A program made the position numbers and the translations under genes. Shown piece after piece: positions 9,931 to 60,664 of a DNA stretch of 64,000 nt. Under the pieces are notes generated by a model. It was not told where the DNA came from, ran no database searches, and saw only the letters and a list, made by a program, of their open reading frames with translations. The DNA is taken from IMG/VR virus record IMGVR_UViG_2889049205_000001, positions 32,001 through 96,000 of that record; one strand, 5' to 3'. The stretch is from a virus (Duplodnaviria > Caudoviricetes). How positions within the stretch are numbered: position 1 is the stretch's first letter; every line of letters starts with the position of its first letter.

Positions 9931-12900
9931 TCATCCCCTGATATATGATAAGTGCAGATGATTGAAGTGATCGTTCCGCTGCGTAATCACGGTACCAGGA
10001 TACTTGGTTTTGCACGTTGCAATGACGTCTACATCCCCATGTATGATTCCGCCAAACCCGGTCTCGACTGCACAATCAATCAAGATTTCCAAATTTCTTT
10101 TTTCCTTGCTCCCTTTCGGGAACCGGTATGCTCCGGAGATGTAAGGTGCATTTGGAGTATCGACATCGCACCCGTACCCCGTTCCGTGCCAGTTTGGATC
10201 CCCAGGGCGGTAAGCACTCGTGATGGCCATTGTTTCTCCGGTGCGACTCTTATACAGCGACCCCATGCGTTCAAGCGCATTGTAGGAAGCCTGCCGGATA
10301 AGCGAAGACTCAGAAACCAATGTGAGCCTAATATTGGTCAACGGCTGCGTCTTCAGATCAATTAAGACGCTTTTGGCTTCCGCCGGCTGCACTCGGTATT
10401 TCGTGCTGCCTTGAGTTCCGAGTACCGTGACGCCATCTGCGCTCGAAGCGCTGATCGGCGGCTTGTAGTTCGGGTCCAACATGGCAATCTTCCGCATGAT
10501 TCCGGCTATACCATTCGCCCAGTTTTTGTCTGTGGCATACTTCTTGTTCATGCCGACCAGGGTTGCCCCGCCAAAATACTTTCCGTCCGGCAGAAGATAA
10601 TCCCTCTTGATCTGCTGCGCTGCGAAGTTGATGCAATGCTGCTTGCTATCGAACGTCCAGGCAGACTCATAGGGGCTTGAATCGTAGGCGCCGTATCCAA
10701 ACATGTTGTTTTTGTCCCGGAAGATCCTAGAGTCCCCCCAGCCCGTCTCCCAGGCGGCGTGAGCTGCCAGATATAAGCCGTTGATGACCCCGGCAATCTG
10801 TACCGTCTGACCCGTCTTCGGGTTTCGCACAGGCGGGATAGAAGTCTCTACAGCTACAAACGCTTGTCCTAGACCGGCCAGCGGCGTTCCGGAAAATGCC
10901 TTGTTAATCGCCTCTGCCGAGATTCCGCTCGGCGTGTTCAGATCCATGTTGGCATATCCGGTTCCTGATTGACCCGGAACAGCTACCGGATCGACCGTGT
11001 AGATTGAGTCTCGATTATTTTCCTCGTCGAGTGAATCTACTCGTTTCAGGTAGGCTTCCTGCGCTTCGATAACCTCTTGCTCATATCTTGCTTTGAACTT
11101 CTCATCGTAAGGCACTACACGACGGTGAGCTTGAATGAAGTTGGCCACAACTACATTGGGGTCATACGGCAGATTATCCGTACTCGTTTCTCCTGCAGTC
11201 TGCACCTTCGGAATGTCAAACGCATCGGTCGCCTGCTGATTGGCAGCGTACTTGGAGACGTCTGCCCCCAGGAACGAGAAGAATACCGATTGCCACTTGC
11301 CAGTGAATATACGCTGGATCAAGTCGGGCGAGTCCGTGATAACCGAGCCTTTGTGACCATTGATGCCGGCCGAGAACTCATATCCGTCCTTCTGCAGCGT
11401 CGCAATCATGCAAGCTTGCCTCGTAAAGAGGAATCGTTCCAAATACTCCGCCACGCCCGCCAAGGCCACCTCTGTGACCAGTGTTTCAATCAGCACCGGA
11501 ATGATGCCGACTCCCGTCGCAGACACAGCTCCTCGGACCGCCCAGCGACCTGCCCGCAAGCTTTTTCCGGCGATCTTTGCACCAGTGAAAGCTAGCTTTG
11601 ACGTAATGCGACGCATCTTCGCTATTTTAGTTATATTGATTTTATCATAACCCAGAATACGGTTATCACTCAAAATGTCGTCAGCCTTGTCAAAGAGATC
11701 TTCCATCTTTGAGAGCTCGAGATTGTCCAATGTCTTGATGATATCGTCCAATAGCCCACTGGCTTTCCATTTCTTTCTCGTTTCTTCCGAGATGGGATTA
11801 TATTCCCGCCACTTGCCCGTAACCTCGTCATATTCCCATATGTTCGTGCCGGCAGCCGGCTTCGGATTTACATTGAGCATTTCTTTCAGCTTATCAATGC
11901 CCTTGTCGATTTTGAATGTCTGCGTCATTTTCTTGTATTGCCGTTTGATCAAGCCCCATGCCGCATTCATGATCGGGAATGCACCCTTGTAATTCGGGTT
12001 CGCCAGAATCCCACGGAGCACCAGTGTCATGGTGAGTGCCGTGCCGATCGAGTAGCAGCTGTGCATGAAGTTCATTTGAGTCTGGTCGGAATTGACGACT
12101 ACCGCATCCGGCTTGACCATCGTTATAAAACCGAACTCCATGTTCATCATCTGCGTGACTTCCCGCACCTCTGCCGGGCCTGTGATGCTGTTCCAAGTGT
12201 CATTGATTAGCATTTGGTCGAACGGCTTGACGGCCGGTTCTCCTACGAGAGTCAGGTATCCGTCGTACATCTCTTTGACATGATCTTTGAGTCCGCTCGC
12301 TGCGATCTTAATCGCAACGCCCTCATCGTAATACCATTTAAACGGCTTGTTCAGCCATCCACCGATGAGCGGAATGTTTTGGACCAGCCGGATGCCCTGG
12401 GCGTTCAGAGTCGTGTCCAGGTTCACCGTGCGCAGCTTCTCCGGCCAGATGTTTGTATCCACGTAGATCGGCTCCGTCGTGTCCAGCTTTCCCTCGTTGT
12501 AATACGTGCCGATCGCTACGTTGTACATGTTCTGCTCGGTGGCCGTGATGCTGTTATCCATGATGTTGGTCCAGCTATCAAAGACGTGGAACTGACGGAA
12601 TGTCTTTCGGTACAGCGAGATGTTGTCATCCTCGTCCACATGATACCCAAAGGCAATCGGCATGGTTGGCTTACCGCTGAATATTGTGCTTCTGAAATCG
12701 AACGGATGCACAGCCACAACATGATCTTGCCCGATTGCTGCCGTGATGTTCAGGACGTCCCACACCGTCTTGTCATACAAGTTAATGTTGATGCCAGGCT
12801 CGTCAGCATCCCCTACCCCAAAGAAGTCTCCCATCCGGCTCCAGAACCCGACCTCCGAATTGAGTTTGCCTGTCACCTCGTAGACATTCATGTTGATCTC

Positions 12901-15900
12901 GTTCATGATCCGGCTGGTTAACTCGCCGAACAGATTATCTGCCGGCCGCCCCGGAGCTCCGAAGTGGATGATTCCGAGCGAGTGCTTGGCGTAATCGGCG
13001 TTGCTGAAAGCCTGCTTTAGGTTTCCGAAGAAGCCCTGGTCATCCCGCAGCAATGCATCGACAATCTCCGTAGGCTCTTTCTTGCTGAAGATAAAACCGC
13101 TCGTTGTGTCATCCGGATTGGCTTTGATTTTGTTGGTCAGTTCGATGCCATCGTCTTGCACGACCACGGACACGCTTTCGCCGTTGTTCTGCAATTCTGT
13201 AATGGTGCCATTCATCAGCGTCGGCATGCTCATCGGATTCGATCCATACCCCATACGGAAGTGGACCCTGGCGCCAGTGCGGAGCATAATTGACTTGTAG
13301 AAGCTGGCATCTCGATTGCGGCTGCGCTCTGCCTCTTTAGCGGCGAAGCCCGGTGCGAGCAGCGATTGAACCAGATCCCATGCGCCATGATGTGTTAGAT
13401 CCATCGCCTTGACGCCATCAGATAGGCTGCCGTACACGTTGCTCATTTCGAGGGATAAGGTGCTTGAGGCCACCTTCCGGCTGTTCGTATACATGATGTC
13501 CGTAACAGCCTGATACCCAAAGTAACGGTCTGACATTTTGATCGTGCCCATGTATTGCCCTTCATCGACGAACATTAGGAAGAAAGACGGAAACGCCCGC
13601 ACAAGACGGCCACGTCGGTCGTATTTCTCCAGATCATGGAACATCTCACGCAGCGTCGTTTCCTCATCCTCAAAATCGGATTCTTCATGAACCGAGTCCG
13701 ATTTGGCATAGACGGTCGCATTCTGCAGGCTGGCTGTTTTGTAATCCGGCACCGGCAGCTCACTGACTTTCTTTTGAATGGTTGCCTCATCCCATTCTTT
13801 CGTTTGGCCGATGATCGTCAGCATCTTCTTGATTTGGACGACTAGTGCATAGGAGAGCTTCTTGTTGGATTTGTACAGCCGGCCATACTCTGTCTCAAAG
13901 CCAAGGTACAGGCAGACAGCAGCGGCAAAATAGCATCTCTCCGTATCCGTCGCCTTATCGGCGTTTAAGCCGAATGCATCGTAAACATACGAGCTGATCA
14001 TGTTCGAGGTCTTCACCTTGTTGAAATAATACTGTAGGTGTGCGACACCCGTCTCGATGTTGTACTCGTAGTTCATGCCAAGCGAATTCGGCTCCCCCAT
14101 GATAGGACTAACCCGCATAATGCCAATATGCGCCGCTTCCCGGATAAAGCTGGTATCGGCAAAGAACTTCATCTCTGCAGTCTGCATAATTGGCACGTTC
14201 GATTTCTCCACATAAACGTTGCCGAGCGACGTATTGGCGCCGTATCCTGTCGCATAGAAGTGACGAAGCTTTTCGTCAAAGGATTTTGCAAAGGCCACGG
14301 CCCATGATTGCTTAATGACATTCGTCTGCGGGTTCGGATTCAATGGGGTCTGCTGCTGAGCAACGGCAGCAGTAAGATCCTTCATTTTCTGAAAGGTCTT
14401 CTGCCGGATCAAGGACTCGAACTCCGTTGCCGTCAGATTGGTTTCATTCGTTTCTTCCGGTGCCTCCTGAGCAACGCTTGGCTTTTTGCTCGCCGCTCGC
14501 TCGGTCTGCAGCTTGGCCGTATAATCTTTCGATTTCTCATCCGGCTTGAAACTGGCTTTGTCAACCACTGCCGTGCCGCCTATTGTGTCCCTGGCTTCCG
14601 ATTTGAAGGCGCTGTTTAGGTGATCCACCGCCTCCTGACCCACCGTCACAAAGTCATCATAGATCAGGAAGAAATCCGGCTCGACGTAAAACCCATCGTT
14701 GTTGTTAATGATCTGAAAGCCCGCTTCAGCCACTTCCGTGTAGGTTGGTAACTCCAAATCCGGATAGATTTCCACCGCTGTGAAGTTCTTCTTGATCTTG
14801 GCCTCATACAAGACTTTTTGCTTCACGTCGAGATCCATGTACCCTTTGACAGCAAGATCTCTGAATACCGGTCGATCCTTCAGCCAGGATGCCCATCCGA
14901 AGAAAGGGATCAGCAGTTTGGCGTTTGAGTTTCGCCATCCATCGATCTCCCATACCGCATCGTCCCCGTTCATCAGCCTTGTTTCAGCCAGCTTCTTCTG
15001 CGCCCGGTTAAAAGCGATCAGCGTGAGCTGGATATCAAATACGCCTGGCTGCCCCTCGACTGTCGTGGATTGTACGTCTTGGACGACCACGAATTTGACA
15101 CCAAAGAGGTTGGCCAGCGGATGATCAAACTGGATGAAACCGTTAGAGATTTCCTTGTGGTATTCCCGCACCAGATAGTTTGCTCGGCGAACCATGCCAT
15201 CGAACTGCGCCAGTGTTTCCGAGTCATCCGTGCGGAAGCGGGCCACGATCACCGTATCTTGGGATCCCAAGTATTGATGTGTCGGTGTTTCATGCGCCTG
15301 GATCTGCAGCGACGTGATGACGTTCTGGAAGCTTATGCTGAGATCTGTCAGATGCAGATCATCAAACATCCAGTCTTCCATCGTAATGTCATACTCGAAG
15401 ATGGCTTTTTTGTAATGCTCGTCGAAGTTTTGGTTAAACAGATCCTCGTCGAGCTCATCGAACGGAAGTGTCTCTCCATCGAAATCCTCGATGTCCACGT
15501 ATTTCTTATCGGCCATGTCGTCCTGCCATGCCTTTATCATTTTATCCCGGTCCACCCGCCAGCGGCGGATCGCATCAAGGTCGCCCTCAAAGGCTGTCTT
15601 AAACTTGAACTGATCCGTCATCTCCTGGCGCATGGGTTCGAAATACGTATAACGTCCTTCGCTCGGCTCCAGGCTTCGACGATAGTACCAGCGGAATAAC
15701 GGCCAGTTGAAAAGATCGTCAAAGGTGCGGTCATTCTCGTTGAAAATGTAGACGAATGGATTAAATGAATAGAGCTGCAGATTTGCCGTAATCGCCTGCG
15801 GAAATCCTGGCACTGTGGAAACTGTGATTCCGGCAACGCTCACTGCCTGAATATCGTAGACGTCATTCAGGTGCATACTTTGGACCGGAAGAAATGGGCA

Positions 15901-16182
15901 CTTTTTGACCTGGGCCAGTAGCGGCCGCAACTCATTGTTGATTGACTCCATATCCGGGAAAAACAGCGACAAATCGACCACGAGATCGAAATAGCCGCTG
16001 CCCTTAATAAAACTGCCCCGGCTCCGGAGCATATTAACTGTTTCATTTTTCATACGCTTGGTGACGGTGATGGCCGTGGGAGGCACGTAAAACTGCGTAT
16101 CGCCAATGCGCAAATGATGAGGGAGAAGACTCCCATAGAGGGAGTCCCGATCATCTATTCCTTTTGAGGCCATATATAACAC
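9931..16182 (-). CDS. Baseplate hub/tail-associated lysin (GH73 glucosaminidase + M15-like peptidase, degenerate SLT-like domain)
   Basis: 2083 aa. GH73: LAAHAAWETGWG...KNNMFGYGAYD...YATD..WA. M15: ITSAYR...H..G...D...H..HLH. Hub-like RMGYG...G.ITE segment. Confidence 0.8.
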   Translation of the reverse strand: MLYMASKGIDDRDSLYGSLLPHHLRIGDTQFYVPPTAITVTKRMKNETVNMLRSRGSFIKGSGYFDLVVDLSLFFPDMESINNELRPLLAQVKKCPFLPVQSMHLNDVYDIQAVSVAGITVSTVPGFPQAITANLQLYSFNPFVYIFNENDRTFDDLFNWPLFRWYYRRSLEPSEGRYTYFEPMRQEMTDQFKFKTAFEGDLDAIRRWRVDRDKMIKAWQDDMADKKYVDIEDFDGETLPFDELDEDLFNQNFDEHYKKAIFEYDITMEDWMFDDLHLTDLSISFQNVITSLQIQAHETPTHQYLGSQDTVIVARFRTDDSETLAQFDGMVRRANYLVREYHKEISNGFIQFDHPLANLFGVKFVVVQDVQSTTVEGQPGVFDIQLTLIAFNRAQKKLAETRLMNGDDAVWEIDGWRNSNAKLLIPFFGWASWLKDRPVFRDLAVKGYMDLDVKQKVLYEAKIKKNFTAVEIYPDLELPTYTEVAEAGFQIINNNDGFYVEPDFFLIYDDFVTVGQEAVDHLNSAFKSEARDTIGGTAVVDKASFKPDEKSKDYTAKLQTERAASKKPSVAQEAPEETNETNLTATEFESLIRQKTFQKMKDLTAAVAQQQTPLNPNPQTNVIKQSWAVAFAKSFDEKLRHFYATGYGANTSLGNVYVEKSNVPIMQTAEMKFFADTSFIREAAHIGIMRVSPIMGEPNSLGMNYEYNIETGVAHLQYYFNKVKTSNMISSYVYDAFGLNADKATDTERCYFAAAVCLYLGFETEYGRLYKSNKKLSYALVVQIKKMLTIIGQTKEWDEATIQKKVSELPVPDYKTASLQNATVYAKSDSVHEESDFEDEETTLREMFHDLEKYDRRGRLVRAFPSFFLMFVDEGQYMGTIKMSDRYFGYQAVTDIMYTNSRKVASSTLSLEMSNVYGSLSDGVKAMDLTHHGAWDLVQSLLAPGFAAKEAERSRNRDASFYKSIMLRTGARVHFRMGYGSNPMSMPTLMNGTITELQNNGESVSVVVQDDGIELTNKIKANPDDTTSGFIFSKKEPTEIVDALLRDDQGFFGNLKQAFSNADYAKHSLGIIHFGAPGRPADNLFGELTSRIMNEINMNVYEVTGKLNSEVGFWSRMGDFFGVGDADEPGININLYDKTVWDVLNITAAIGQDHVVAVHPFDFRSTIFSGKPTMPIAFGYHVDEDDNISLYRKTFRQFHVFDSWTNIMDNSITATEQNMYNVAIGTYYNEGKLDTTEPIYVDTNIWPEKLRTVNLDTTLNAQGIRLVQNIPLIGGWLNKPFKWYYDEGVAIKIAASGLKDHVKEMYDGYLTLVGEPAVKPFDQMLINDTWNSITGPAEVREVTQMMNMEFGFITMVKPDAVVVNSDQTQMNFMHSCYSIGTALTMTLVLRGILANPNYKGAFPIMNAAWGLIKRQYKKMTQTFKIDKGIDKLKEMLNVNPKPAAGTNIWEYDEVTGKWREYNPISEETRKKWKASGLLDDIIKTLDNLELSKMEDLFDKADDILSDNRILGYDKINITKIAKMRRITSKLAFTGAKIAGKSLRAGRWAVRGAVSATGVGIIPVLIETLVTEVALAGVAEYLERFLFTRQACMIATLQKDGYEFSAGINGHKGSVITDSPDLIQRIFTGKWQSVFFSFLGADVSKYAANQQATDAFDIPKVQTAGETSTDNLPYDPNVVVANFIQAHRRVVPYDEKFKARYEQEVIEAQEAYLKRVDSLDEENNRDSIYTVDPVAVPGQSGTGYANMDLNTPSGISAEAINKAFSGTPLAGLGQAFVAVETSIPPVRNPKTGQTVQIAGVINGLYLAAHAAWETGWGDSRIFRDKNNMFGYGAYDSSPYESAWTFDSKQHCINFAAQQIKRDYLLPDGKYFGGATLVGMNKKYATDKNWANGIAGIMRKIAMLDPNYKPPISASSADGVTVLGTQGSTKYRVQPAEAKSVLIDLKTQPLTNIRLTLVSESSLIRQASYNALERMGSLYKSRTGETMAITSAYRPGDPNWHGTGYGCDVDTPNAPYISGAYRFPKGSKEKRNLEILIDCAVETGFGGIIHGDVDVIATCKTKYPGTVITQRNDHFNHLHLSYIRG

Positions 16183-16185
16183 CCC

Positions 16186-19100
16186 TTACATGTGCTGCTC
16201 AACTTTATCCCGGTACCAGAGCCTCGAAAGGTTATTGGTGTTATCGGAATAGTTTACGGTCATGTTGGACTGACCTTGATATCCGCTCCGGCGCATCCCT
16301 TCTTGAACTAGGGATGACAGCCCTTGTTGCTGGTTTCCTTGCCCTCTAGCGCTAATCGAGACGTGCGCTCCGGAGCTGGGACCGCCGATCGGCGGTAAAG
16401 GTGATTGCGGCACTGGCGCTGCCTGTGGCGGCGGAGGCGGTGGAACCGGCCCAGTGTCATTACTAAGAATATTGTAACCCATTACACCACCTAAAGCTAG
16501 ACCGCCAAGCAAGGCAATTTTCTTGTTTCTTGAACCATTCGGTCCATTGAAGATGTTCTCTGGGATCCAACCGCCGGTCAGGTCGTGCATCATCTCCGGA
16601 ATAGCGCCAGCACGCTTCCCTCGAGCTTCGGATCCCATTACATTCGTTGGGTCCAGTTCGGGTTCGACATTTGGGATAGTCGGATCAATATCAGGCTCCG
16701 GAGCGGCGCCTACACCTCTTTTCATCCTGCCGAACATCCGTGTGAACTCATTAGAGGAAACCCGGTCGCCCTCTTCAAGATTACCGAAAATGGTGTCATG
16801 CACTCTTCGAAGACCTTCATTCTCCACATTAATTCCGGAGCTAGTACCAACACGGAAGCCGGAGTTGGCCAGATTGCCATTCAGGTTACGTGGCTTATCC
16901 AGTAGTCCTATCGCTTCATCGAGCCCGTGTTCTCTGGACCACATGCCGCCATAGCTCTCTTGATCGATCCGGCGCACCTTATTCCAGTCTGAAGCCAGGA
17001 AAGCGGATCGGAACTCGGACACCGGAGACTTCATATCTTCCGTGATCACTACACCGTCCTTTGCGGCGTCGATACCCTTCTGCTCCAAGGTGCTCCCGAA
17101 TTTCGAAAGGAACTTGTACTCATTCGATCCTGTTCCATACGTATGCTCAGCAAAATCTTGGATGGCCGAGTTTAAGTTTGAGATCGTACCGATCTGCGTC
17201 TTACCGATTTTGTTAGCCATTTCATTCGGCAAGTTCGGCTCCATCGGACGGATGACGGTTGTGTCCTGACCACTATACGATTTCACCGCTTCCCGCAGGT
17301 CATAATTCCGGCCGGATGTAGAGAGCTTCTTATTCCCCTCTTGCGTCAAGTAATCTCCCCAGCTGCTGTATCCGCCCATAAACTCGGCAGCCCGCTTATC
17401 TTTCAGAGCAGCCCATTCTTTCTGCACGTTGTCTTCGTCCACGTAAACCATGTGTAACTGGTCTCCGTCGGCATCCCCTTCGAGCTGGTCGCCCGTAAAG
17501 GCTGTCGTCAGCACGTTACCTGTCTTCAGCTTAGGATCGATAGCGATCCGTGTGAACTGGACGGCCGATTCGTGTTTGGATGGGTAACGGATCGTGAGCA
17601 CGTTCTTGTTCTGCTGCCGGTTCCAATCGGAGAGAATATCACTCTCTGCCGCTGTGCCAACATGCTGCTGGCCGATGATGTGCTCGTAGATGCCCATGTC
17701 CTTAGCCTGCTGCGTGGAGATGAACGTCATTTCTTCGCCGAGCATCGCCGAAGCTTCCGGACCCAGGAGCTTTAATGTGCCTGTACCCGATGACGGCATT
17801 TGCGCCTTCAGAGCTCTCTCTCCGGCCATCCCTTTAGAAGTCAGCGTGTCGGTGCCGAGTTGATTCACGTAGCTGTTGACGTTCCGCTGGATGTCTCGCA
17901 TATGCTTCAAGGCGCTGTCACGGCCGGTCTTGGATTTCGCTTCGCCATATTTCTTTATGCTGTCATTAATATTGGCGATCTGCCGCTGCAGCTTATTCAG
18001 GTGGACCAGGTCGCTCTGCCCGTCTCCCTGTAACTGCATGAACGGCACGAAAATCTTGTTGGTTTTGACTGCCGGGCTGTTCTTTCCGTTGATGTTGATA
18101 TCGACTTCTTCCGGAAGCCCCAGCCAGAATCCGTGTCCCAAATCCCGTTGATCTATACCAAGATTGTGGGCAACTGCCTGACGATCCATGATCGTATGTT
18201 TGACCGTGTTCTGGTCGAGCTCCACTTCTGGCATAAATGCGAACTCATGACCTTGAAGAATGCGGTCCTTATAGGGCTGCATTTCCGGAGCATCCGGATC
18301 TACTAGCGCTTTGATGGTGTGCGCCAAATTCTTAACGTCGCTCTGCTCAAAACGATTCTGCTTCTCCATTACGTTCCAGATATGCTCATAAGTCTGTGTG
18401 GCTCCCGATCTGCGAAGGTACCGCATCTCACGATGACCAATCGAAGTGCCATCTAAACCGTTTGCGTAAACTTTTGAGCCATCATTTGCGTTGCCGATTA
18501 CCGACCGTCCTGTTCCATCAACCGACTTGTAATACTGCCGATTGTGCATCATGCGGGTTTCCAGAATACCCGTGAATAATCCGGTGTTGGTTTGTAGCTT
18601 AGCGCCGACTTGATTGGCAATCTTGTGGAAGTCCTCAATATCAATCGGCGCCTGTCTGCTCACATCCATGAATGAACCGTTCTTGAACTCCAAGCCAATG
18701 CGGCCGAAGTCTATTTGCTCCAGCAGCTGATCCCGCTTCTTCCGATCCTGGTTCATGACATGATCGATAATCGTCTTGGCGTAGCCTTCCATCATCATCC
18801 CAAAGTCAGCACGCTTAGCTGGGTTCGGACTGATCATAGCACTGATCCCTTTGTCGCCCGTGATAGCTTCGATGAACCGAAGGCTTGGTGTAATAGCATC
18901 TGTCCCCTTCTCACCGGCAAATGAGAGCTTGAATGGTTTCTCCGACCACTCTACGCCAAATACCTGCGATCCGGTCCCCACAAGTTTGCCTGCATATCGG
19001 TTGTCGTGGCGAACATCTTCCCAAGCGCCATCGACCCATTTGCGCCCAATTACATCACCCGGCCTAACAGCCGCACCTTCGAGCCCCTGGCCACCGACAA

Positions 19101-22100
19101 CAAAATCGCTCCCCCTCGCTGCGGCACCATTGCTAGCGAAGTCTTTGTGCCACTGAAATGTTCCGTTTCCCTTATCATAGAAGTCCTGGTCCGTAACTGA
19201 CATTGAATCCATGAGTTCCTTAGCGATGACTGCTTGCTGCTCATAAACAGTCGGTATCCGGCGTGGATCGACCACTTCCTTGCCGCCTCGGTTTACGAGG
19301 ATGCCTTCTGACCGAAGCAGCCCACGGCCCTGTTCTGTATTCTGTAGATCCGTCACCCGTTTGTGAAGCTCCTCGTTAGTGATGTAGGCTACCTTGAGGT
19401 TTACTCCGGTCCGGGTCGGTCTTCCTTTTCCCTCTTGTTCTGATCGGTAGGCGGCGTTTATCTCTGTCTCGACCATTGGATTGAAGTTGGCGTAAGCGTC
19501 AATCTTCGAGAGACGGCCAGCCACCTCATCAGAGATCATGTACATATTTTGGGACTGAATAGCATTCGGCCGCCCCATGTTAGTGTAATGTCCGTACAGC
19601 GTCATGTCCCGCATGTCCATGGTGGACATTGAGCCCTGTTGAACTCGTCCGTCTTTTACTGACGATACGTACAGGTTGGGGGTGCCCCCATCCCAGCGAA
19701 CTCGGTTGTTCCAATCGCTCATGCCCATTCGTATCTGAAATTGCTTGCTCATGTTTACGTCATCGATCGTCAGGAGCTGCTTCACCTTGCGACTGCGATC
19801 CTTCGAGTCGTAATAGAAAGCAGAATCGTTCAGGTCCCCTTCGGACAACTCTTTGGATTCCAGCATGCTGTGCAACATGGCCGGCATGACGTTGATGTGC
19901 GATTGCTTCATGAAGTCGGATTTGTTGCCTGACCAATCGTAGGTGTCGTTGAAATTATAGATATCTCGCTGCCCGCCAGCCAGGTTTGAGATTGAATCTC
20001 GTAATGTCCGATTGCTCCGGTAGGACGCCTTTTCGTAATCATCTTCGTCCAGCGCTGACAAGATGCCGTCCATACCATGGGCGTATCGCATGCCAATGAT
20101 TTCGGCTGTGGACTTACGAACAGCAGAACCTTTGCCGTCCTGCTCCTTTTCCCATACCGCCACCGTGTGAGCGATCATCCGCTGCTTATTGAGCACCTGC
20201 ATACCATCCTGGTTGATCAGTGGGATCAAAATCTCAACAGCCCTCGGGTGTGTCTTTCCTTCGAGCAGCGCTTCTCGGACGCTTGTGCTGTATTGCGGCT
20301 TGTATACTGTGATCTTCGCCATAGGCGAGTTAATATCTTGATTTACGCTGAGGTCGTACATGATGTTGCGGCCGGAGTTATTCAGTGACTGCAGTACGCT
20401 CTCGACGGCGCCTCGGTTGTTTGCCTTTAGCCCCGACAGGTGATTTGTTTCCAAGGACTCGAAGAACATTTCGGCGTCCGCATGCAGATTAACTTTGCCA
20501 CCCATCGTAAAGGCCTGGCCTTGATAGCTCAGGGTTTTGCGAATCGCCTCTCCTACGATGCTTTGGTTTCTTGCCCCGGTGATTCTCGACATATCACGAG
20601 CTTCAAGCGATGTTGTTTCCGGCGACTCCAGCGGAATGTTCTTGCTGTGCAGGTCCATAGCGATGCGAACCACGGTATCATTGATTTGGCCATTGCTTTG
20701 TGCAATAATGCCGTACCGCTTCTGAAGCTCGGAACCAATTAGGCCATTTTCATGCAGTCCATTTATGAACTGTGTCATCCGGTGCTGCTGTGTCAGCGGG
20801 TTATTGGAATCGTCCTGCTGAATATATCTGCGGATCGCACGTTCTGTTTGCTGCACGGACTGCATGCTGAAGAATCGCTCATCCCCATCTACATTTAAAC
20901 GGAATCCTCGATTCTCCCATGATGCCATCTCACGAGCGCCTACGTGCCGGCCTGCAGCATCATCTCGGCTTACCCCTTGTGTGTACAGGCGCCATGCAAT
21001 ATCTCGCTGCTGCCGAGCAGCTGCTCGCTCTGATGACGTCATGCTGTCCAGGATCGGAATCTGTTGTTCAATAGTGCGGATCGCCTCCTGGAACACAGGC
21101 CGCTCGCTGCGCAGACGAGGCGCCATCCGGTAGAACAGCTTCTCTTCGTCAATATTGTGGCCCCACTGCAGCTGGCCGTTAGCAAAGCCCACCGGCTTAC
21201 TGTTGAAGTCGAGCATGCTGCGATAACTATCGTTGCTGCGGTACGGCTCGACCTCTGCTCGGATCTGAGCCTCATACTTAGAGTAGAGGCTATTCAATAC
21301 GTTAGGATCTGTAGATCCCATAGAGCTGTATTCGGCGAGCGCAAGCGCTTGTGCTTTGGCTGCGATATTCTTCTGCTTGGCGCCCAGACGCTTTTCGTAA
21401 TGCTCCGTGTTCTCGTACATCCGCTTGGCAGCATCGAATCCAGCAGTACGACTCTCGCCGCCGGCACCTGATAAACTGGACATCCGTTCGTATCTGCGGC
21501 GAGCAAGGTCGGTTTCTCGGATCCGTCGGATTTCTGCCTGCTCGTCCTTGCTCATGCCGTTTACGTTATGGAAGCGGCTTTGCACGAACTGGGCAATCTG
21601 ATGCATGGAGTTCGGGCCCTGCCGGGTCACGTAACTGTATCGGTCATTATCGGAATCGAAGAGTTCCAGCACATGGCCATTTATTACGCCCTTATCATCT
21701 GTCAGCTCACGGACGCCATTGACGGTGTACAAAGTGCGAGCATTGATGACCGTGCGATTCCAGGAGACATCGTGCATCGCCATCTTGCCATCTTCAAGCC
21801 TGGCTTGAAAATCGAGATTGTCATCTCCGTAGGCTGCGTAACCGTTTGAGGCGAACAGCTTATCGCCTTTCTTGAGCACTTCTTTCTTGTTCCAAGTGAA
21901 TTCGGATGGCCGGATATTCATGCCTTCCATGGCACCACGGTTTTTGGCCGCATTGATTTTGTTATGAACCTTTGGCAGCGTTTTGTTGATTACTCCACCG
22001 AGACCCCGCTCATCAACGTCGGCGATCGCCGCATGCGCATCATCGCCGTCAATCCCCAGTGTTCGTCTAACCTCATGCATGGACAGGTAGCCCTGCTGGA

Positions 22101-23109
22101 AATATCGCCCCTTCATAACACCTTTGCCGCCGAACTCTTGATGGAAGTCAACCGGGTTGGCGTAAGCTGTCTGCAGTACCCGGAAATAGTCCACATGATT
22201 TTGAGGGCGGGCAATGGTCTGGCCAGTCTTCTTGCCGAACCGGTCCAGTGTCTCCAAGTCGAAGTTCTCCCCGTTGTAGGAGAAGAATGTCTGATCGGCG
22301 TGGCCTTGAACGAAGGTACGGTATTTACGCATCTGGTTGGCGACGGAATGCTTGTCACTCAGGCCGACAAGGTTGTTATAGCCGGACTGGATATGATCCC
22401 GATACATGTCGAAATTGAGAATGAATTTCTGATAACTGTACCGACCATTCATATCCTCAAGGCTCTTGATGATCGTATTATGCGAAAGCGTAGACTCGTT
22501 TAGGTTCGCTGCCTGCAGACCGGCTCCCGAGAGTGTCGAGTAGCGCATAAGGTTAACGATGGATCGGCGCTCAGCGTCGCTCATGTTGTTGAAAGCGAAT
22601 TTGTCCATTTTGATCCGGCGGATCAGAGAATCCAGATAGAGCTGGCTTTCTTTGTCCGGCTTGACTAGGAGGCTCAATTGCCGCCGGTTGTCGGCTTTGA
22701 AAAGTCCATCTTTGGTCTTTTGGAAACCCTGAATCGCAATCTCTGGAACGTGCAGGCCTTTTCCTGATGCTTCATCCCCGAGAGACTCGATATCGAAGGC
22801 GTAAAATACGTTGCTCTGCCCGCTCATGAACTTCTGGAATGCCTCAACCTGCTTTTGTCCCAGCTGCTGATGTGGGCTGCTGAAGTTCTTCAAAATAACA
22901 CTACCGCTCGACTTGATCGTTTTCTGATCCAAGATCGGAGTGTCGTTGATGGCACTTAGTACCCGACTGACCCGATCCTCTCGAGTCGGGTCGTTATCGT
23001 ATGATGCCTTTCGGGTTGCATGGAATGACGATAGCAGCGACCATTGCTGTGAAGCAGGGGTGGCCATCGGAATCCCTGTATTGTCAAAACCGTTTATTTT
23101 GTCATTCAT
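16186..23109 (-). CDS. Putative single-chain two-barrel RNA polymerase fused to an N-terminal DEDDh exonuclease; probably virion-associated
   Basis: Motifs in order: RPNAIQSQ, GVNLKVAY, YEQQAVI, KLSFAGEKG, ISPNPAKR, GTSIGHREM (beta-like); SGTG, IRYPSKH, GDADGDQ (beta'-like); IGTISN, IDAAK. N-terminal FDIES, YNGENFD, HAAIAD. Confidence 0.8.
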   Translation of the reverse strand: MNDKINGFDNTGIPMATPASQQWSLLSSFHATRKASYDNDPTREDRVSRVLSAINDTPILDQKTIKSSGSVILKNFSSPHQQLGQKQVEAFQKFMSGQSNVFYAFDIESLGDEASGKGLHVPEIAIQGFQKTKDGLFKADNRRQLSLLVKPDKESQLYLDSLIRRIKMDKFAFNNMSDAERRSIVNLMRYSTLSGAGLQAANLNESTLSHNTIIKSLEDMNGRYSYQKFILNFDMYRDHIQSGYNNLVGLSDKHSVANQMRKYRTFVQGHADQTFFSYNGENFDLETLDRFGKKTGQTIARPQNHVDYFRVLQTAYANPVDFHQEFGGKGVMKGRYFQQGYLSMHEVRRTLGIDGDDAHAAIADVDERGLGGVINKTLPKVHNKINAAKNRGAMEGMNIRPSEFTWNKKEVLKKGDKLFASNGYAAYGDDNLDFQARLEDGKMAMHDVSWNRTVINARTLYTVNGVRELTDDKGVINGHVLELFDSDNDRYSYVTRQGPNSMHQIAQFVQSRFHNVNGMSKDEQAEIRRIRETDLARRRYERMSSLSGAGGESRTAGFDAAKRMYENTEHYEKRLGAKQKNIAAKAQALALAEYSSMGSTDPNVLNSLYSKYEAQIRAEVEPYRSNDSYRSMLDFNSKPVGFANGQLQWGHNIDEEKLFYRMAPRLRSERPVFQEAIRTIEQQIPILDSMTSSERAAARQQRDIAWRLYTQGVSRDDAAGRHVGAREMASWENRGFRLNVDGDERFFSMQSVQQTERAIRRYIQQDDSNNPLTQQHRMTQFINGLHENGLIGSELQKRYGIIAQSNGQINDTVVRIAMDLHSKNIPLESPETTSLEARDMSRITGARNQSIVGEAIRKTLSYQGQAFTMGGKVNLHADAEMFFESLETNHLSGLKANNRGAVESVLQSLNNSGRNIMYDLSVNQDINSPMAKITVYKPQYSTSVREALLEGKTHPRAVEILIPLINQDGMQVLNKQRMIAHTVAVWEKEQDGKGSAVRKSTAEIIGMRYAHGMDGILSALDEDDYEKASYRSNRTLRDSISNLAGGQRDIYNFNDTYDWSGNKSDFMKQSHINVMPAMLHSMLESKELSEGDLNDSAFYYDSKDRSRKVKQLLTIDDVNMSKQFQIRMGMSDWNNRVRWDGGTPNLYVSSVKDGRVQQGSMSTMDMRDMTLYGHYTNMGRPNAIQSQNMYMISDEVAGRLSKIDAYANFNPMVETEINAAYRSEQEGKGRPTRTGVNLKVAYITNEELHKRVTDLQNTEQGRGLLRSEGILVNRGGKEVVDPRRIPTVYEQQAVIAKELMDSMSVTDQDFYDKGNGTFQWHKDFASNGAAARGSDFVVGGQGLEGAAVRPGDVIGRKWVDGAWEDVRHDNRYAGKLVGTGSQVFGVEWSEKPFKLSFAGEKGTDAITPSLRFIEAITGDKGISAMISPNPAKRADFGMMMEGYAKTIIDHVMNQDRKKRDQLLEQIDFGRIGLEFKNGSFMDVSRQAPIDIEDFHKIANQVGAKLQTNTGLFTGILETRMMHNRQYYKSVDGTGRSVIGNANDGSKVYANGLDGTSIGHREMRYLRRSGATQTYEHIWNVMEKQNRFEQSDVKNLAHTIKALVDPDAPEMQPYKDRILQGHEFAFMPEVELDQNTVKHTIMDRQAVAHNLGIDQRDLGHGFWLGLPEEVDININGKNSPAVKTNKIFVPFMQLQGDGQSDLVHLNKLQRQIANINDSIKKYGEAKSKTGRDSALKHMRDIQRNVNSYVNQLGTDTLTSKGMAGERALKAQMPSSGTGTLKLLGPEASAMLGEEMTFISTQQAKDMGIYEHIIGQQHVGTAAESDILSDWNRQQNKNVLTIRYPSKHESAVQFTRIAIDPKLKTGNVLTTAFTGDQLEGDADGDQLHMVYVDEDNVQKEWAALKDKRAAEFMGGYSSWGDYLTQEGNKKLSTSGRNYDLREAVKSYSGQDTTVIRPMEPNLPNEMANKIGKTQIGTISNLNSAIQDFAEHTYGTGSNEYKFLSKFGSTLEQKGIDAAKDGVVITEDMKSPVSEFRSAFLASDWNKVRRIDQESYGGMWSREHGLDEAIGLLDKPRNLNGNLANSGFRVGTSSGINVENEGLRRVHDTIFGNLEEGDRVSSNEFTRMFGRMKRGVGAAPEPDIDPTIPNVEPELDPTNVMGSEARGKRAGAIPEMMHDLTGGWIPENIFNGPNGSRNKKIALLGGLALGGVMGYNILSNDTGPVPPPPPPQAAPVPQSPLPPIGGPSSGAHVSISARGQGNQQQGLSSLVQEGMRRSGYQGQSNMTVNYSDNTNNLSRLWYRDKVEQHM

Positions 23110-31575: not shown

Positions 31576-32087
31576 CAGCCTCCTAGCCGTTTTACTTTTG
31601 AAAGTGGATCGATATCGAGTGCATAGAACTCATAGACGTTTTCAGTAAACATATTGTTGACACCCATGACTTTGCCCTCTGTGAAGGTCGTAATGCCATA
31701 GATCGTCATGACGCTCTTGCTGCCAAACTCGTTGGCCATAGAGATTGTCACGTCGAACATTGGCATTTCATCCATCAGCACCTTGTATCCTTGCTCCCTG
31801 ATCTCTTCCAGACATCGGTAGACAATCGTCTCGTCGAAGTCGGTAAACTGCAATATGCCGGTCACGGTACGCATCCCTCTGGTAAAGCCTTTTGGTGTCA
31901 CCCGGCCCAGTGCAAGAACTGGAAACTTGGCTCGATAAATCGAGTAGGATATTTGCGACAGGTTTCCGAAGACAATTGGGCCTTTTCCTGGAATATTCAG
32001 TGTAGCAACCATGTCGGTGCCGGCGTATGTCGTGAATGTCCTCTGCATACCATCAACGTCAGTTGGTCGTCTTTGCATTCCTCTCAC
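31575..32087 (-). CDS. Tail tube-like protein (initiator paralogue)
   Basis: YAGTD...G.L..I.YS..R...P...G......RG.R.V.G.L.F..FD, shared with the tube protein. Confidence 0.65.
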   Translation of the reverse strand: MRGMQRRPTDVDGMQRTFTTYAGTDMVATLNIPGKGPIVFGNLSQISYSIYRAKFPVLALGRVTPKGFTRGMRTVTGILQFTDFDETIVYRCLEEIREQGYKVLMDEMPMFDVTISMANEFGSKSVMTIYGITTFTEGKVMGVNNMFTENVYEFYALDIDPLSKVKRLGG

Positions 32088-59452: not shown

Positions 59453-60664
59453 TCACACTGCCTCTTCAAGCATTTGGAGGAATGGCACTACGTATTCCTC
59501 GAAGATTTCATCTTGCGGCATGCCCTTTTGAACCAGGTTCAGGACCGCCATTTCATAGAATCCGATAACGTTGCTGTATTGAGCCATTTCGGCTTTGAAC
59601 AGACCACCAACGTTTTTCGACTTGAATGCCAAGACGAGAGAATCGAAGAAGATATCGGCGCCGCCACCGGTGATCAGGATACCCTGCAGACGCTGAATCT
59701 CACTGCCCCATGCTCGGGTTACTTCGTCCACGATCAGTTCAGCAACCTCTTCCACGGATTCTGTGATTTCTGGCGTCACGTCGTGAGTTTCTCCAGCGTA
59801 CCACAGCGACTTCGTGCGGATCATTACGTCAAGATCCGTATCAGTTGCCTTGTACTCGTAGCCTTCTGCAGCGAACTTAATCGCAAGTTTCGTGCGCAGC
59901 TTGTCGTACACAAGGTTCGTCGCTTCAGTGGAGATTGAAGTGCCTTCTTCTTCACGGATGAATCCATCTTCGAAGAGTGCGGCATCCGTTGTGCCTTGGC
60001 CGATGTCAATGACGCCATGATATTTTGGTGCTTTGCCGGCAGGCAGCAGCAACGTTTTTTCTTCCCTATAGTTAGGATTGAATCTGTAGGTATGATCGAG
60101 AACCGTTCCTTCCGGCTGGCGGATGATATCGACATCGATTACGTTGATTTTCTTGATTACAGTTTTTCCATGGCCCAAGTTGAATGTGATCTCAAAGGAT
60201 TGCTTCAAGTATTCGACCAGCTTGTCCGCATAAATTTTACCGTAATCTTCATTCGGTACGCCTGTCTCCAGGATAACGTCGTACTCGCCTTCTTCATCTG
60301 GAACACCAAGGGCGATCGCTGTGCGGAACAAGACTTGGCTGTCTGTATCTGTTGCACGATCACGAGCCTCTGTACGGTTCGATGTGCGTCCGCCGGTTTT
60401 CGTGCGGGCCTGGTCGCCAACCATATGTGTTTTTCCGTCGATCGTTACAACCAGCTTCTGACGGTTGATTTCATCAAAATTGAACAATTTCGTGCTCGGC
60501 TGTCCGGAAACCACGATGCTTGGAAACACGTACTGAATCCCTGCACTGGAAAGGAGCTTGCCCCATCCGAAACCCATGTCAAGTGCGATTAGAATTGGAC
60601 GTTTCGTCTTTGCCAATGGAATACCGGACTTCGGTGCTGCCTTGGATGAACTTGCTGCTGGCAT
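59453..60664 (-). CDS. parM: ParM/StbA-family actin-like ATPase
   Basis: ALDMGFGWGK (phosphate 1), QPEG, IDIGQGTTD (phosphate 2), ITGGGA, N..GF. Confidence 0.9.
   Translation of the reverse strand: MPAASSSKAAPKSGIPLAKTKRPILIALDMGFGWGKLLSSAGIQYVFPSIVVSGQPSTKLFNFDEINRQKLVVTIDGKTHMVGDQARTKTGGRTSNRTEARDRATDTDSQVLFRTAIALGVPDEEGEYDVILETGVPNEDYGKIYADKLVEYLKQSFEITFNLGHGKTVIKKINVIDVDIIRQPEGTVLDHTYRFNPNYREEKTLLLPAGKAPKYHGVIDIGQGTTDAALFEDGFIREEEGTSISTEATNLVYDKLRTKLAIKFAAEGYEYKATDTDLDVMIRTKSLWYAGETHDVTPEITESVEEVAELIVDEVTRAWGSEIQRLQGILITGGGADIFFDSLVLAFKSKNVGGLFKAEMAQYSNVIGFYEMAVLNLVQKGMPQDEIFEEYVVPFLQMLEEAV

Follow-up and report, generated by a model that had tools for sequence, protein, structure and literature searches.

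The 64,000-nucleotide stretch of viral DNA analyzed here, hereafter the window (IMG/VR virus record IMGVR_UViG_2889049205_000001, positions 32,001 to 96,000), encodes a giant protein, P0001, that is predicted to join a DEDDh 3'-5' exonuclease to a two-barrel RNA polymerase (RNAP) in a single chain. The gene lies in the tape-measure slot of a contractile-tailed jumbo phage. The overall explanation that we favor, and to which we give an even chance, is that P0001 is a tail-slot exonuclease-RNAP whose nuclease acts as an autonomous module at genome entry.

An earlier note on the window had placed a full DnaQ-like catalytic set at positions 22000-22810, and the motifs are indeed all found there: FDIES from residue 105, YNGENFD from residue 278 and HAAIAD from residue 359 fall within positions 22018-22797 on the minus strand. 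Each conforms to its family pattern, with D-x-E for Exo I (D106-I-E108), N-x(3-4)-[FY]-D for Exo II (N279-GEN-F283-D284) and H-x4-D for Exo III (H359-AAIA-D364). When 29 N-terminal domains with 19-63% identity were aligned, the only invariant columns were D106, E108, G111, E123, N279, D284, H359 and D364, which, as judged from the alignment, are the DEDDh catalytic set and two structural positions. Residues D106, E108, N279, D284, H359 and D364 are likewise invariant across 33 full-length proteins.

Profile searches place the family among known exonucleases. The exonuclease family profile matches, at E 7e-7, the exonuclease domain with which archaeal family-B DNA polymerases proofread, and the same alignment puts FDIETL and YNGDxFD onto the catalytic motifs of these polymerases; DnaQ, Cas2-DEDDh, ExoI, TREX2 and RNase T are matched more weakly. 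In Pfam, 12/29 family members match RNase_T (E <= 0.01, best 1.2e-8) and 16/29 match RNase_H_2. P0001 by itself matches RNase_H_2 only, at 16.6 bits, below the cut-off of 22. Single-sequence searches with P0001 assigned no PHROG family, and phmmer against PDB yielded just a spurious arsenate reductase match; megablast and tblastn against 50,697 phage records gave no match. The family is detectable by profiles only, not by single sequences.

The predicted structure points the same way. An AlphaFold2 (AF2) model of the exonuclease domain, built from the 29-domain alignment, has a predicted local distance difference test score (pLDDT) of 89.9 and a predicted template modeling score of 0.88. The best Foldseek matches of this model are RNase T (E 3e-4), TREX1 and a DnaQ domain, with a probability of 1.00 for RNase T and TREX1. 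VIA-align superposes it on Pol III epsilon (2ido_C) with a Z score of 15.1 and a root-mean-square deviation of 2.5 Å over 167 of epsilon’s 175 residues, and on ExoI with a Z score of 14.6. The RNase H-like fold that a DnaQ-like nuclease entails is predicted with high confidence, and its acidic residues are conserved to the point of invariance; clustering of the catalytic acidic residues is implied by the 2.5 Å superposition on epsilon together with the motif-to-motif profile alignment. Structural neighbors of the domain are a mixture of DNases (epsilon, ExoI, TREX) and RNases (RNase T, 3'hExo, ERI1-3).

The distance between Exo I and Exo II is unusually long, as had been pointed out before: D106 and D284 are 178 residues apart, compared to a spacing of 91 residues (D12-D103) in Escherichia coli epsilon. 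Since the epsilon alignment covers 167 residues out of the 280-residue span of the model, a mostly helical insert of ~110 residues explains the long spacing. This insert contains nearly invariant residues of its own, L187 and Y190 (in LMRYST), H210 and G243. The domain shares with DnaQ/Pol III epsilon, ExoI, RNase T and TREX1/2 the Exo I/II/III motifs, the H-x4-D form of Exo III and the RNase H-like fold. It differs from known DEDDh exonucleases in its low identity to them (11-16%), in the ~110-residue helical insert with its own conserved residues and in its location within a predicted virion protein of 2,307 amino acids (aa). Taken together, the motifs, their conservation and the predicted fold show that residues 95-380 make up a DnaQ-like DEDDh 3'-5' exonuclease domain that is complete and strongly conserved.

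The earlier note had also assigned an RNA polymerase to the same polypeptide, and a two-barrel core is recovered by invariant motifs, profile matches and predicted fold alike. Residues K1394, E1400, K1401, T1403, K1432, R1841, P1843, D1879, D1881, G1882 and D1883 are invariant in the 33 full-length homologs, and we take the K1394...K1401 motif (K-x5-G-E-K-G-T) to resemble K-x-x-G-R-H-G-N-K-G of bacterial beta. Against PDB, a profile of residues 1340-2100 matches solely the largest subunits of RNAPs (phiKZ, AR9, Rpb1 and archaeal Rpo1; best E 0.0018), aligned at NADFDGD. The AF2 model of the core has a pLDDT of 86.5, and its best Foldseek matches, at least 500 of them, are all beta'/Rpb1 chains (E ~1e-7). 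With VIA-align, the core aligns to beta'/Rpb1 over most of their length, starting in the N-terminal clamp region and ending close to the beta' C-terminus, at a Z score of ~11, which is middling for a 761-residue model, and to QDE-1 with both barrels spanned at a Z score of 10.8; the fold matches listed for the core are beta'/Rpb1/NRPD1/QDE-1 chains only. These results support a model in which the C-terminal half of P0001 is a single-chain two-barrel RNA polymerase of cellular type, with a beta-like barrel near residue 1394 and a beta'-like DxDGD at residues 1879-1883. The beta-type barrel would supply two conserved basic residues, K1394 and K1401, for which we infer residue-level equivalence to known RNAPs.

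From N- to C-terminus, P0001 consists of a leader, the DEDDh exonuclease, ~750 aa of unknown fold, the beta-like and beta'-like RNAP core, a Gly-rich hydrophobic segment, a Pro-rich linker and a conserved C-terminal module. The middle region (residues 421-1339) comprises ~900 conserved residues, including invariant R537, G557, R665, E669 and P963. A profile of this region found no match in PDB, and an Atlas features search of residues 421-1150 was uninformative, with a best score of 0.81.

The fusion is a stable property of the family. An exhaustive phmmer search using residues 60-420 as the query found 38 cluster representatives, nearly all of them 2,200-2,700 aa long with the exonuclease at the same N-terminal position, and the RNAP core is present in 33/33 of the full-length proteins recovered in this way. 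Because an exonuclease-seeded search is biased toward the exonuclease, a second search was seeded by the DxDGD barrel alone, using a 68-column alignment, and this yielded 13 loci from IMG/VR, GTDB genomes and metagenomes. Wherever the N-terminus of the open reading frame (ORF) was on the contig, the same ORF encoded the exonuclease (11/11 loci, two of which are one contig); two further loci are cut by contig ends. The question of whether homologous RNAPs keep the fusion can be answered in the affirmative, as both domains occur in the same order in every full-length member, confirming that the exonuclease-RNAP fusion is real and conserved. A word-index homolog search returned 2 relatives, an IMG/VR search with the single domain returned none, and 0/400 other genomes sampled from the phylum contained a match. 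One family member (2,267 aa, with exonuclease and RNAP) is found in a cultured type strain, Oceanobacillus profundus DSM 18246, on a 194.7-kb contig (NZ_QWEH01000007.1:126080-146277).

The P0001 gene is syntenic with that of 0305phi8-36 gp146, lying between the tail chaperones and gp145-like giant on one side and a gp147-like hub/lysin on the other. The gp146 protein was described as a ‘hypothetical tape measure protein’ and detected in virions by mass spectrometry, and only the last 60 residues were found to be conserved among homologs in this slot (PMC2147016). A hidden Markov model (HMM) of the C-terminal 128 residues of P0001 matches WH1 gp095 (1e-23), KLEB27-3 gp034 (1e-22), Moorella CDS0031 (8.5e-13) and 0305phi8-36 gp146 (1.8e-9). 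The shared slot and the common C-terminal module identify P0001 as a gp146-slot protein.

Two of these relatives have the full architecture. In Bacillus phages vB_BauM_KLEB27-3 and vB_BceM_WH1, gp034 and gp095, respectively, match both the exonuclease HMM (E 3e-41 and 1e-31) and the RNAP core HMM (1e-46 and 3e-38). Like P0001, they have an N-terminal exonuclease, an RNAP core with DxDGD, the C-terminal module and the same synteny. Both are annotated merely as structural proteins, and their identity to P0001 is too low for tblastn at E 1e-5. KLEB27-3 and WH1 are cultured lytic phages, whereas the P0001 copy is found on a contig of a bacterial genome assembly.

Other occupants of the slot appear to have the nuclease without the polymerase. 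CDS0027 of Moorella phage MTATph1 (1,309 aa) contains a full homologous DEDDh domain (hhalign probability 96.7%, E 3e-10, with part of the insert aligned as well) and scores above the Pfam cut-off for RNase_T; it has no RNAP profile match and no DxDxD motif. The Moorella slot gene is split by an IS21-type element (transposase and IstB), beyond which CDS0031 (313 aa) holds the C-terminal module. As the pieces amount to ~1,650 aa, there is no room for a polymerase core. In 0305phi8-36 gp146, which likewise has no RNAP core and no DxDxD motif, DIETTG at residue 1223 and the strand that follows it match the exonuclease HMM (E 2.7e-4, from a tiny database; 11% probability in hhalign), and NVADAD (residue 1440) and HLARAD (residue 1685) are candidates for Exo II and Exo III as motif sightings only. 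In the 0305phi8-36 papers gp146 figures solely as a tape measure; this published virion protein may hide an unannotated exonuclease. The exonuclease-like region of gp146 would be mid-protein (~1223-1690), in contrast to the N-terminal domain of P0001. Across these comparisons, the conserved scaffold of the slot protein would seem to consist of the exonuclease and the C-terminal module, with the polymerase present in one branch only.

If proteins of the tape-measure slot have their C-terminus at the tail tip, the N-terminal exonuclease of P0001 would be nearest to the leading DNA end. We consider it fairly likely that P0001 is loaded in the tail in this orientation and ejected ahead of the DNA, and that its polymerase transcribes the first genes and then gives way to a separate YonO-like RNAP whose gene lies elsewhere on the replicon. 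More tentatively, and at somewhat less than an even chance, the exonuclease would be a catalytically active, autonomous module that works on nucleic-acid 3' ends at the genome entry site, most likely DNA 3' ends, either the phage’s own leading end or nearby host DNA. It would not be an obligatory proofreader, because the exonuclease and the C-terminal module are kept in slot orthologs without a polymerase.

Several observations weigh against this model. That P0001 would be present in virions is carried over from a positional ortholog and from annotations in databases. Functional coupling would account just as well for the fact that exonuclease and polymerase occur together without exception in the RNAP-bearing family, and the structural neighbors, which include DNases and RNases, do not tell a DNA from an RNA substrate. 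As for the slot proteins that lack a polymerase, the IS21-interrupted Moorella gene may be a decaying copy, and in gp146 statistical support covers the Exo I region only, with Exo II and Exo III resting on motifs.

The first alternative is that the exonuclease proofreads or rescues transcripts by trimming misincorporated, backtracked or arrested nascent RNA 3' ends. It would then be the editing nuclease of a single-chain RNAP without a Gre/TFIIS partner, as nsp14 ExoN is for the coronavirus RNA-dependent RNA polymerase and epsilon is for Pol III. The occurrence of both enzymes in one polypeptide and in the same order in all 33 + 11 family members would be expected of such a pairing, and RNA 3'-end trimmers (RNase T, 3'hExo and ERI1-3) are among the structural matches of the DEDDh domain. 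Nevertheless, we consider transcript editing somewhat unlikely: the homologous exonuclease is retained in slot proteins without a polymerase, ~1,000 residues separate the exonuclease and polymerase modules, and in known two-barrel RNAPs the polymerase active site itself does the RNA editing, with early phage transcripts having little need for high fidelity. A broader claim, that P0001 would be the first case of a two-barrel polymerase to which a DEDDh nuclease is covalently attached as a dedicated editor, be it an RNA polymerase trimming the 3' ends of its own transcripts or a PolD-like enzyme that also makes DNA on the entering genome, is in our judgment unlikely. If it were true, the RNAP lineage of cellular type would have evolved exonucleolytic proofreading too, alongside the right-hand and PolD polymerases.

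Host takeover or counter-defence is another potential function. Within seconds of the start of infection, the ejected nuclease could degrade nucleic acids of the host or defence molecules that offer a free 3' end, for example host DNA nicks or ends, guide or primer RNAs, multicopy single-stranded DNA (msDNA) or linear oligonucleotide signals. By the slot and virion arguments the enzyme would arrive ahead of all phage gene expression, it is also found apart from the RNAP, and the large insert with its conserved L187, Y190, H210 and G243 could set an unusual choice of substrate. The few copies per virion expected of a tail-lumen protein would be a poor stoichiometry for bulk degradation, however, and no likeness to a known anti-defence nuclease turned up, PADLOC not being among the resources searched, so that we regard such a function as distinctly unlikely.

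We also considered that the polymerase makes DNA too, as a PolD-like two-barrel DNA polymerase or a primase-polymerase that works on the incoming genome and has a classical exonuclease for proofreading. There is precedent in archaeal PolD, a two-barrel polymerase with a 3'-5' proofreading nuclease (PMC7281927), and in sequence the exonuclease profile is nearest to the proofreading domains of DNA polymerases. Yet Exo III is of the ‘h’ type, as opposed to the ‘y’ type in PolB, and the best fold matches of the core are all RNAP largest subunits, aligned over most of their length, with no PolD chain among the matches listed, an absence that does not by itself exclude one. DNA synthesis by P0001 therefore seems very improbable. 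Lastly, the idea that the motifs are a chance or decayed resemblance in a purely structural part of a tape-measure protein might draw on the results for P0001 alone (a sub-threshold RNase_H_2 match of 16.6 bits, no PHROG, no single-sequence PDB match), but it is effectively refuted by five catalytic residues that are invariant down to 19% identity, a confident fold and significant profile matches.

The replicon itself is a Bacillus-type, 0305phi8-36-like contractile-tailed jumbo phage. The P0001 gene sits on a separate contig, C3, of 228,841 bp in a 7.5-Mb Spo0A-positive bacterial genome. The ends of this contig overlap (1-17066 vs 211772-228837; 17,066 bp, 99.94% identical) in a region that holds virion structural genes. 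The molecule is probably circular or permuted, at ~211.8 kb, and the end repeat is probably an untrimmed assembly overlap rather than an early-gene terminal repeat. We had entertained the idea that the exonuclease performs 3' resection of a terminal repeat, exposing the template strand of early genes, and dropped it, because the repeat in C3 carries virion structural genes and looks like an assembly overlap. For 0305phi8-36, the published inference is that the genome enters right end first, and the repeat genes that we saw run leftward, so 3' resection would remove their template strand.

Besides the giant genes, the window encodes a terminase, portal, protease, capsid and sheath proteins and a ParM/Alp7-like actin. 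The actin gene (window 59453-60664, minus strand) matches Pfam ALP_N and MreB-like_C as well as phrog_691, a partition protein, and is consistent with plasmid-like maintenance or with positioning of phage DNA. Given the separate 229-kb contig and the ParM/Alp7-like gene, ‘plasmid prophage’ is a plausible label for the replicon. The sequence GTGGGGA precedes the ATG of P0001, which lies 12 nt beyond the upstream giant gene’s stop codon, and the 2,083-codon gene begins 4 nt downstream of P0001. In the upstream product, P0002, two helices (residues 38-56 and 1612-1633) are strongly hydrophobic, and no family is recognizable; P0002 might be the actual membrane-channel or tape-measure component. 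The downstream giant matches phrog_20474 at 1,226 bits and Pfam Glucosaminidase, and by tblastn it matches the hub/lysin of Moorella phage MTATph1, of Bacillus phages KLEB27-3, WH1 and Edson, and 0305phi8-36 ORF147. Coordinates of the three giant genes and of the features within P0001 are given in Table 1.

Table 1. Giant genes of the tail region and predicted features of P0001, in window coordinates.
Feature	Position	Strand	Evidence or remark
P0001, whole gene, 2,307 aa	16186..23109	-	ORF open through 2,307 codons
DnaQ-like DEDDh 3'-5' exonuclease domain (predicted), residues ~95-380	21970..22827	-	AF2, Foldseek, VIA-align, profile matches
Exo I, F105-D106-I-E108-S	22783..22797	-	D106 and E108 invariant
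Helical family-specific insert between Exo I and Exo II, residues ~150-270	22300..22662	-	Alignment, AF2, VIA-align
Exo II, Y278-N279-G-E-N-F283-D284	22258..22278	-	Alignment; lines up with YNGDSFD of archaeal PolB exonuclease
Exo III, H359-A-A-I-A-D364, ‘h’ type of DEDD	22018..22035	-	Alignment
Middle region, residues 421-1339	19093-21849	-	
Two-barrel RNA polymerase core as modeled, residues 1340-2100	16810..19092	-	AF2, Foldseek, VIA-align
Beta-like double-psi barrel motif, K1394-LSFAG-E1400-K1401-G-T1403 ... K1432	18814..18930	-	Invariant, 33 homologs
Beta'-like double-psi barrel, R1841-Y-P1843 ... D1879-A-D1881-G1882-D1883, metal-binding DxDGD	17461..17589	-	Invariant; profile alignment
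C-terminal module, residues 2180-2307: Gly-rich hydrophobic segment, Pro-rich linker, ~60-aa terminal block	16186..16572	-	HMM
P0002, upstream giant gene, 1,981 aa	23121..29066	-	Corresponds by position to 0305phi8-36 gp145
Giant gene downstream of P0001, 2,083 aa; baseplate hub / tail lysin, glucosaminidase domain	9931..16182	-	Counterpart of 0305phi8-36 gp147

Just outside the window, contig C3 contains an ORF of 1,232 aa (C3:99347-103042, plus strand) with an ADNDGD motif. An Atlas features search puts it among PF05183 (RdRP/YonO-like) phage proteins with a score of 0.97, and it matches phrog_8308, a PHROG of unknown function; no match was found in Pfam, PDB or by tblastn against phages. 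From its sequence, this ORF is probably the non-virion two-barrel RNAP of the replicon, in parallel to 0305phi8-36 orf99 and to the pair of virion and non-virion RNAPs in P23-45.

Virion RNAPs fused to tail or ejection proteins have been characterized in few phage lineages, namely P23-45, crAss-like phages and N4. The P0001 family extends the tail-fused virion RNAP to contractile-tailed jumbo phages of Bacillota and adds a nuclease without a reported counterpart on any two-barrel RNAP. Since the nuclease is also found in slot proteins without a polymerase, a previously unrecognized nuclease step at genome entry is suggested for the 0305phi8-36 lineage as a whole, and the ‘tape measure’ label of gp146-type proteins would hide enzymes. 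With two family members in cultured Bacillus phages (KLEB27-3 and WH1), the role of the nuclease is open to direct experiment, and O. profundus DSM 18246 is another possible source.

The closest known system is that of Thermus phage P23-45, in which gp96 is a tape-measure-fused virion two-barrel RNAP with gp64 as its non-virion partner (Chaban et al. 2024, PMC10770324). P0001 resembles gp96 as a two-barrel RNAP within a giant tail-lumen protein of the tape-measure slot, in the proposed transcription of the first genes during DNA entry and in the second, non-virion RNAP encoded elsewhere. It differs in the contractile tail of its phage, in the placement of the RNAP in the C-terminal half and in the N-terminal DEDDh exonuclease; the P23-45 paper makes no mention of an exonuclease (PMC10770324). 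The gp96 protein is absent from the PDB profile search and from the fold matches listed for the RNAP core, which does not exclude homology. Other giant ejected virion RNAPs are gp66 of the crAss-like phage phi14:2 and N4 vRNAP, as they are cited in the P23-45 paper (PMC10770324). These are similar to P0001 in being very large ejected proteins with a polymerase that starts phage transcription. Both are podovirus-type capsid cargo and not tail-slot proteins, and the N4 polymerase is T7-like; we know of no report of a nuclease domain in either.

Pairing of a polymerase with a 3'-5' exonuclease is familiar from Pol I, PolB and Pol III epsilon, from coronavirus nsp14 ExoN and from archaeal PolD DP1-DP2. 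The PolD nuclease is Mre11-like, and to our knowledge none of these pairs joins a DEDDh domain to a two-barrel RNA polymerase. Coupling between exonuclease and polymerase in P0001 is putative. The supposition of the earlier note that no two-barrel RNAP with a linked DEDDh nuclease had been characterized agrees with the literature searched, which yields no such description. The tail-fused virion RNAP is thus already known as a kind; what is new is the P0001 family, its setting in contractile-tailed jumbo phages and its exonuclease.

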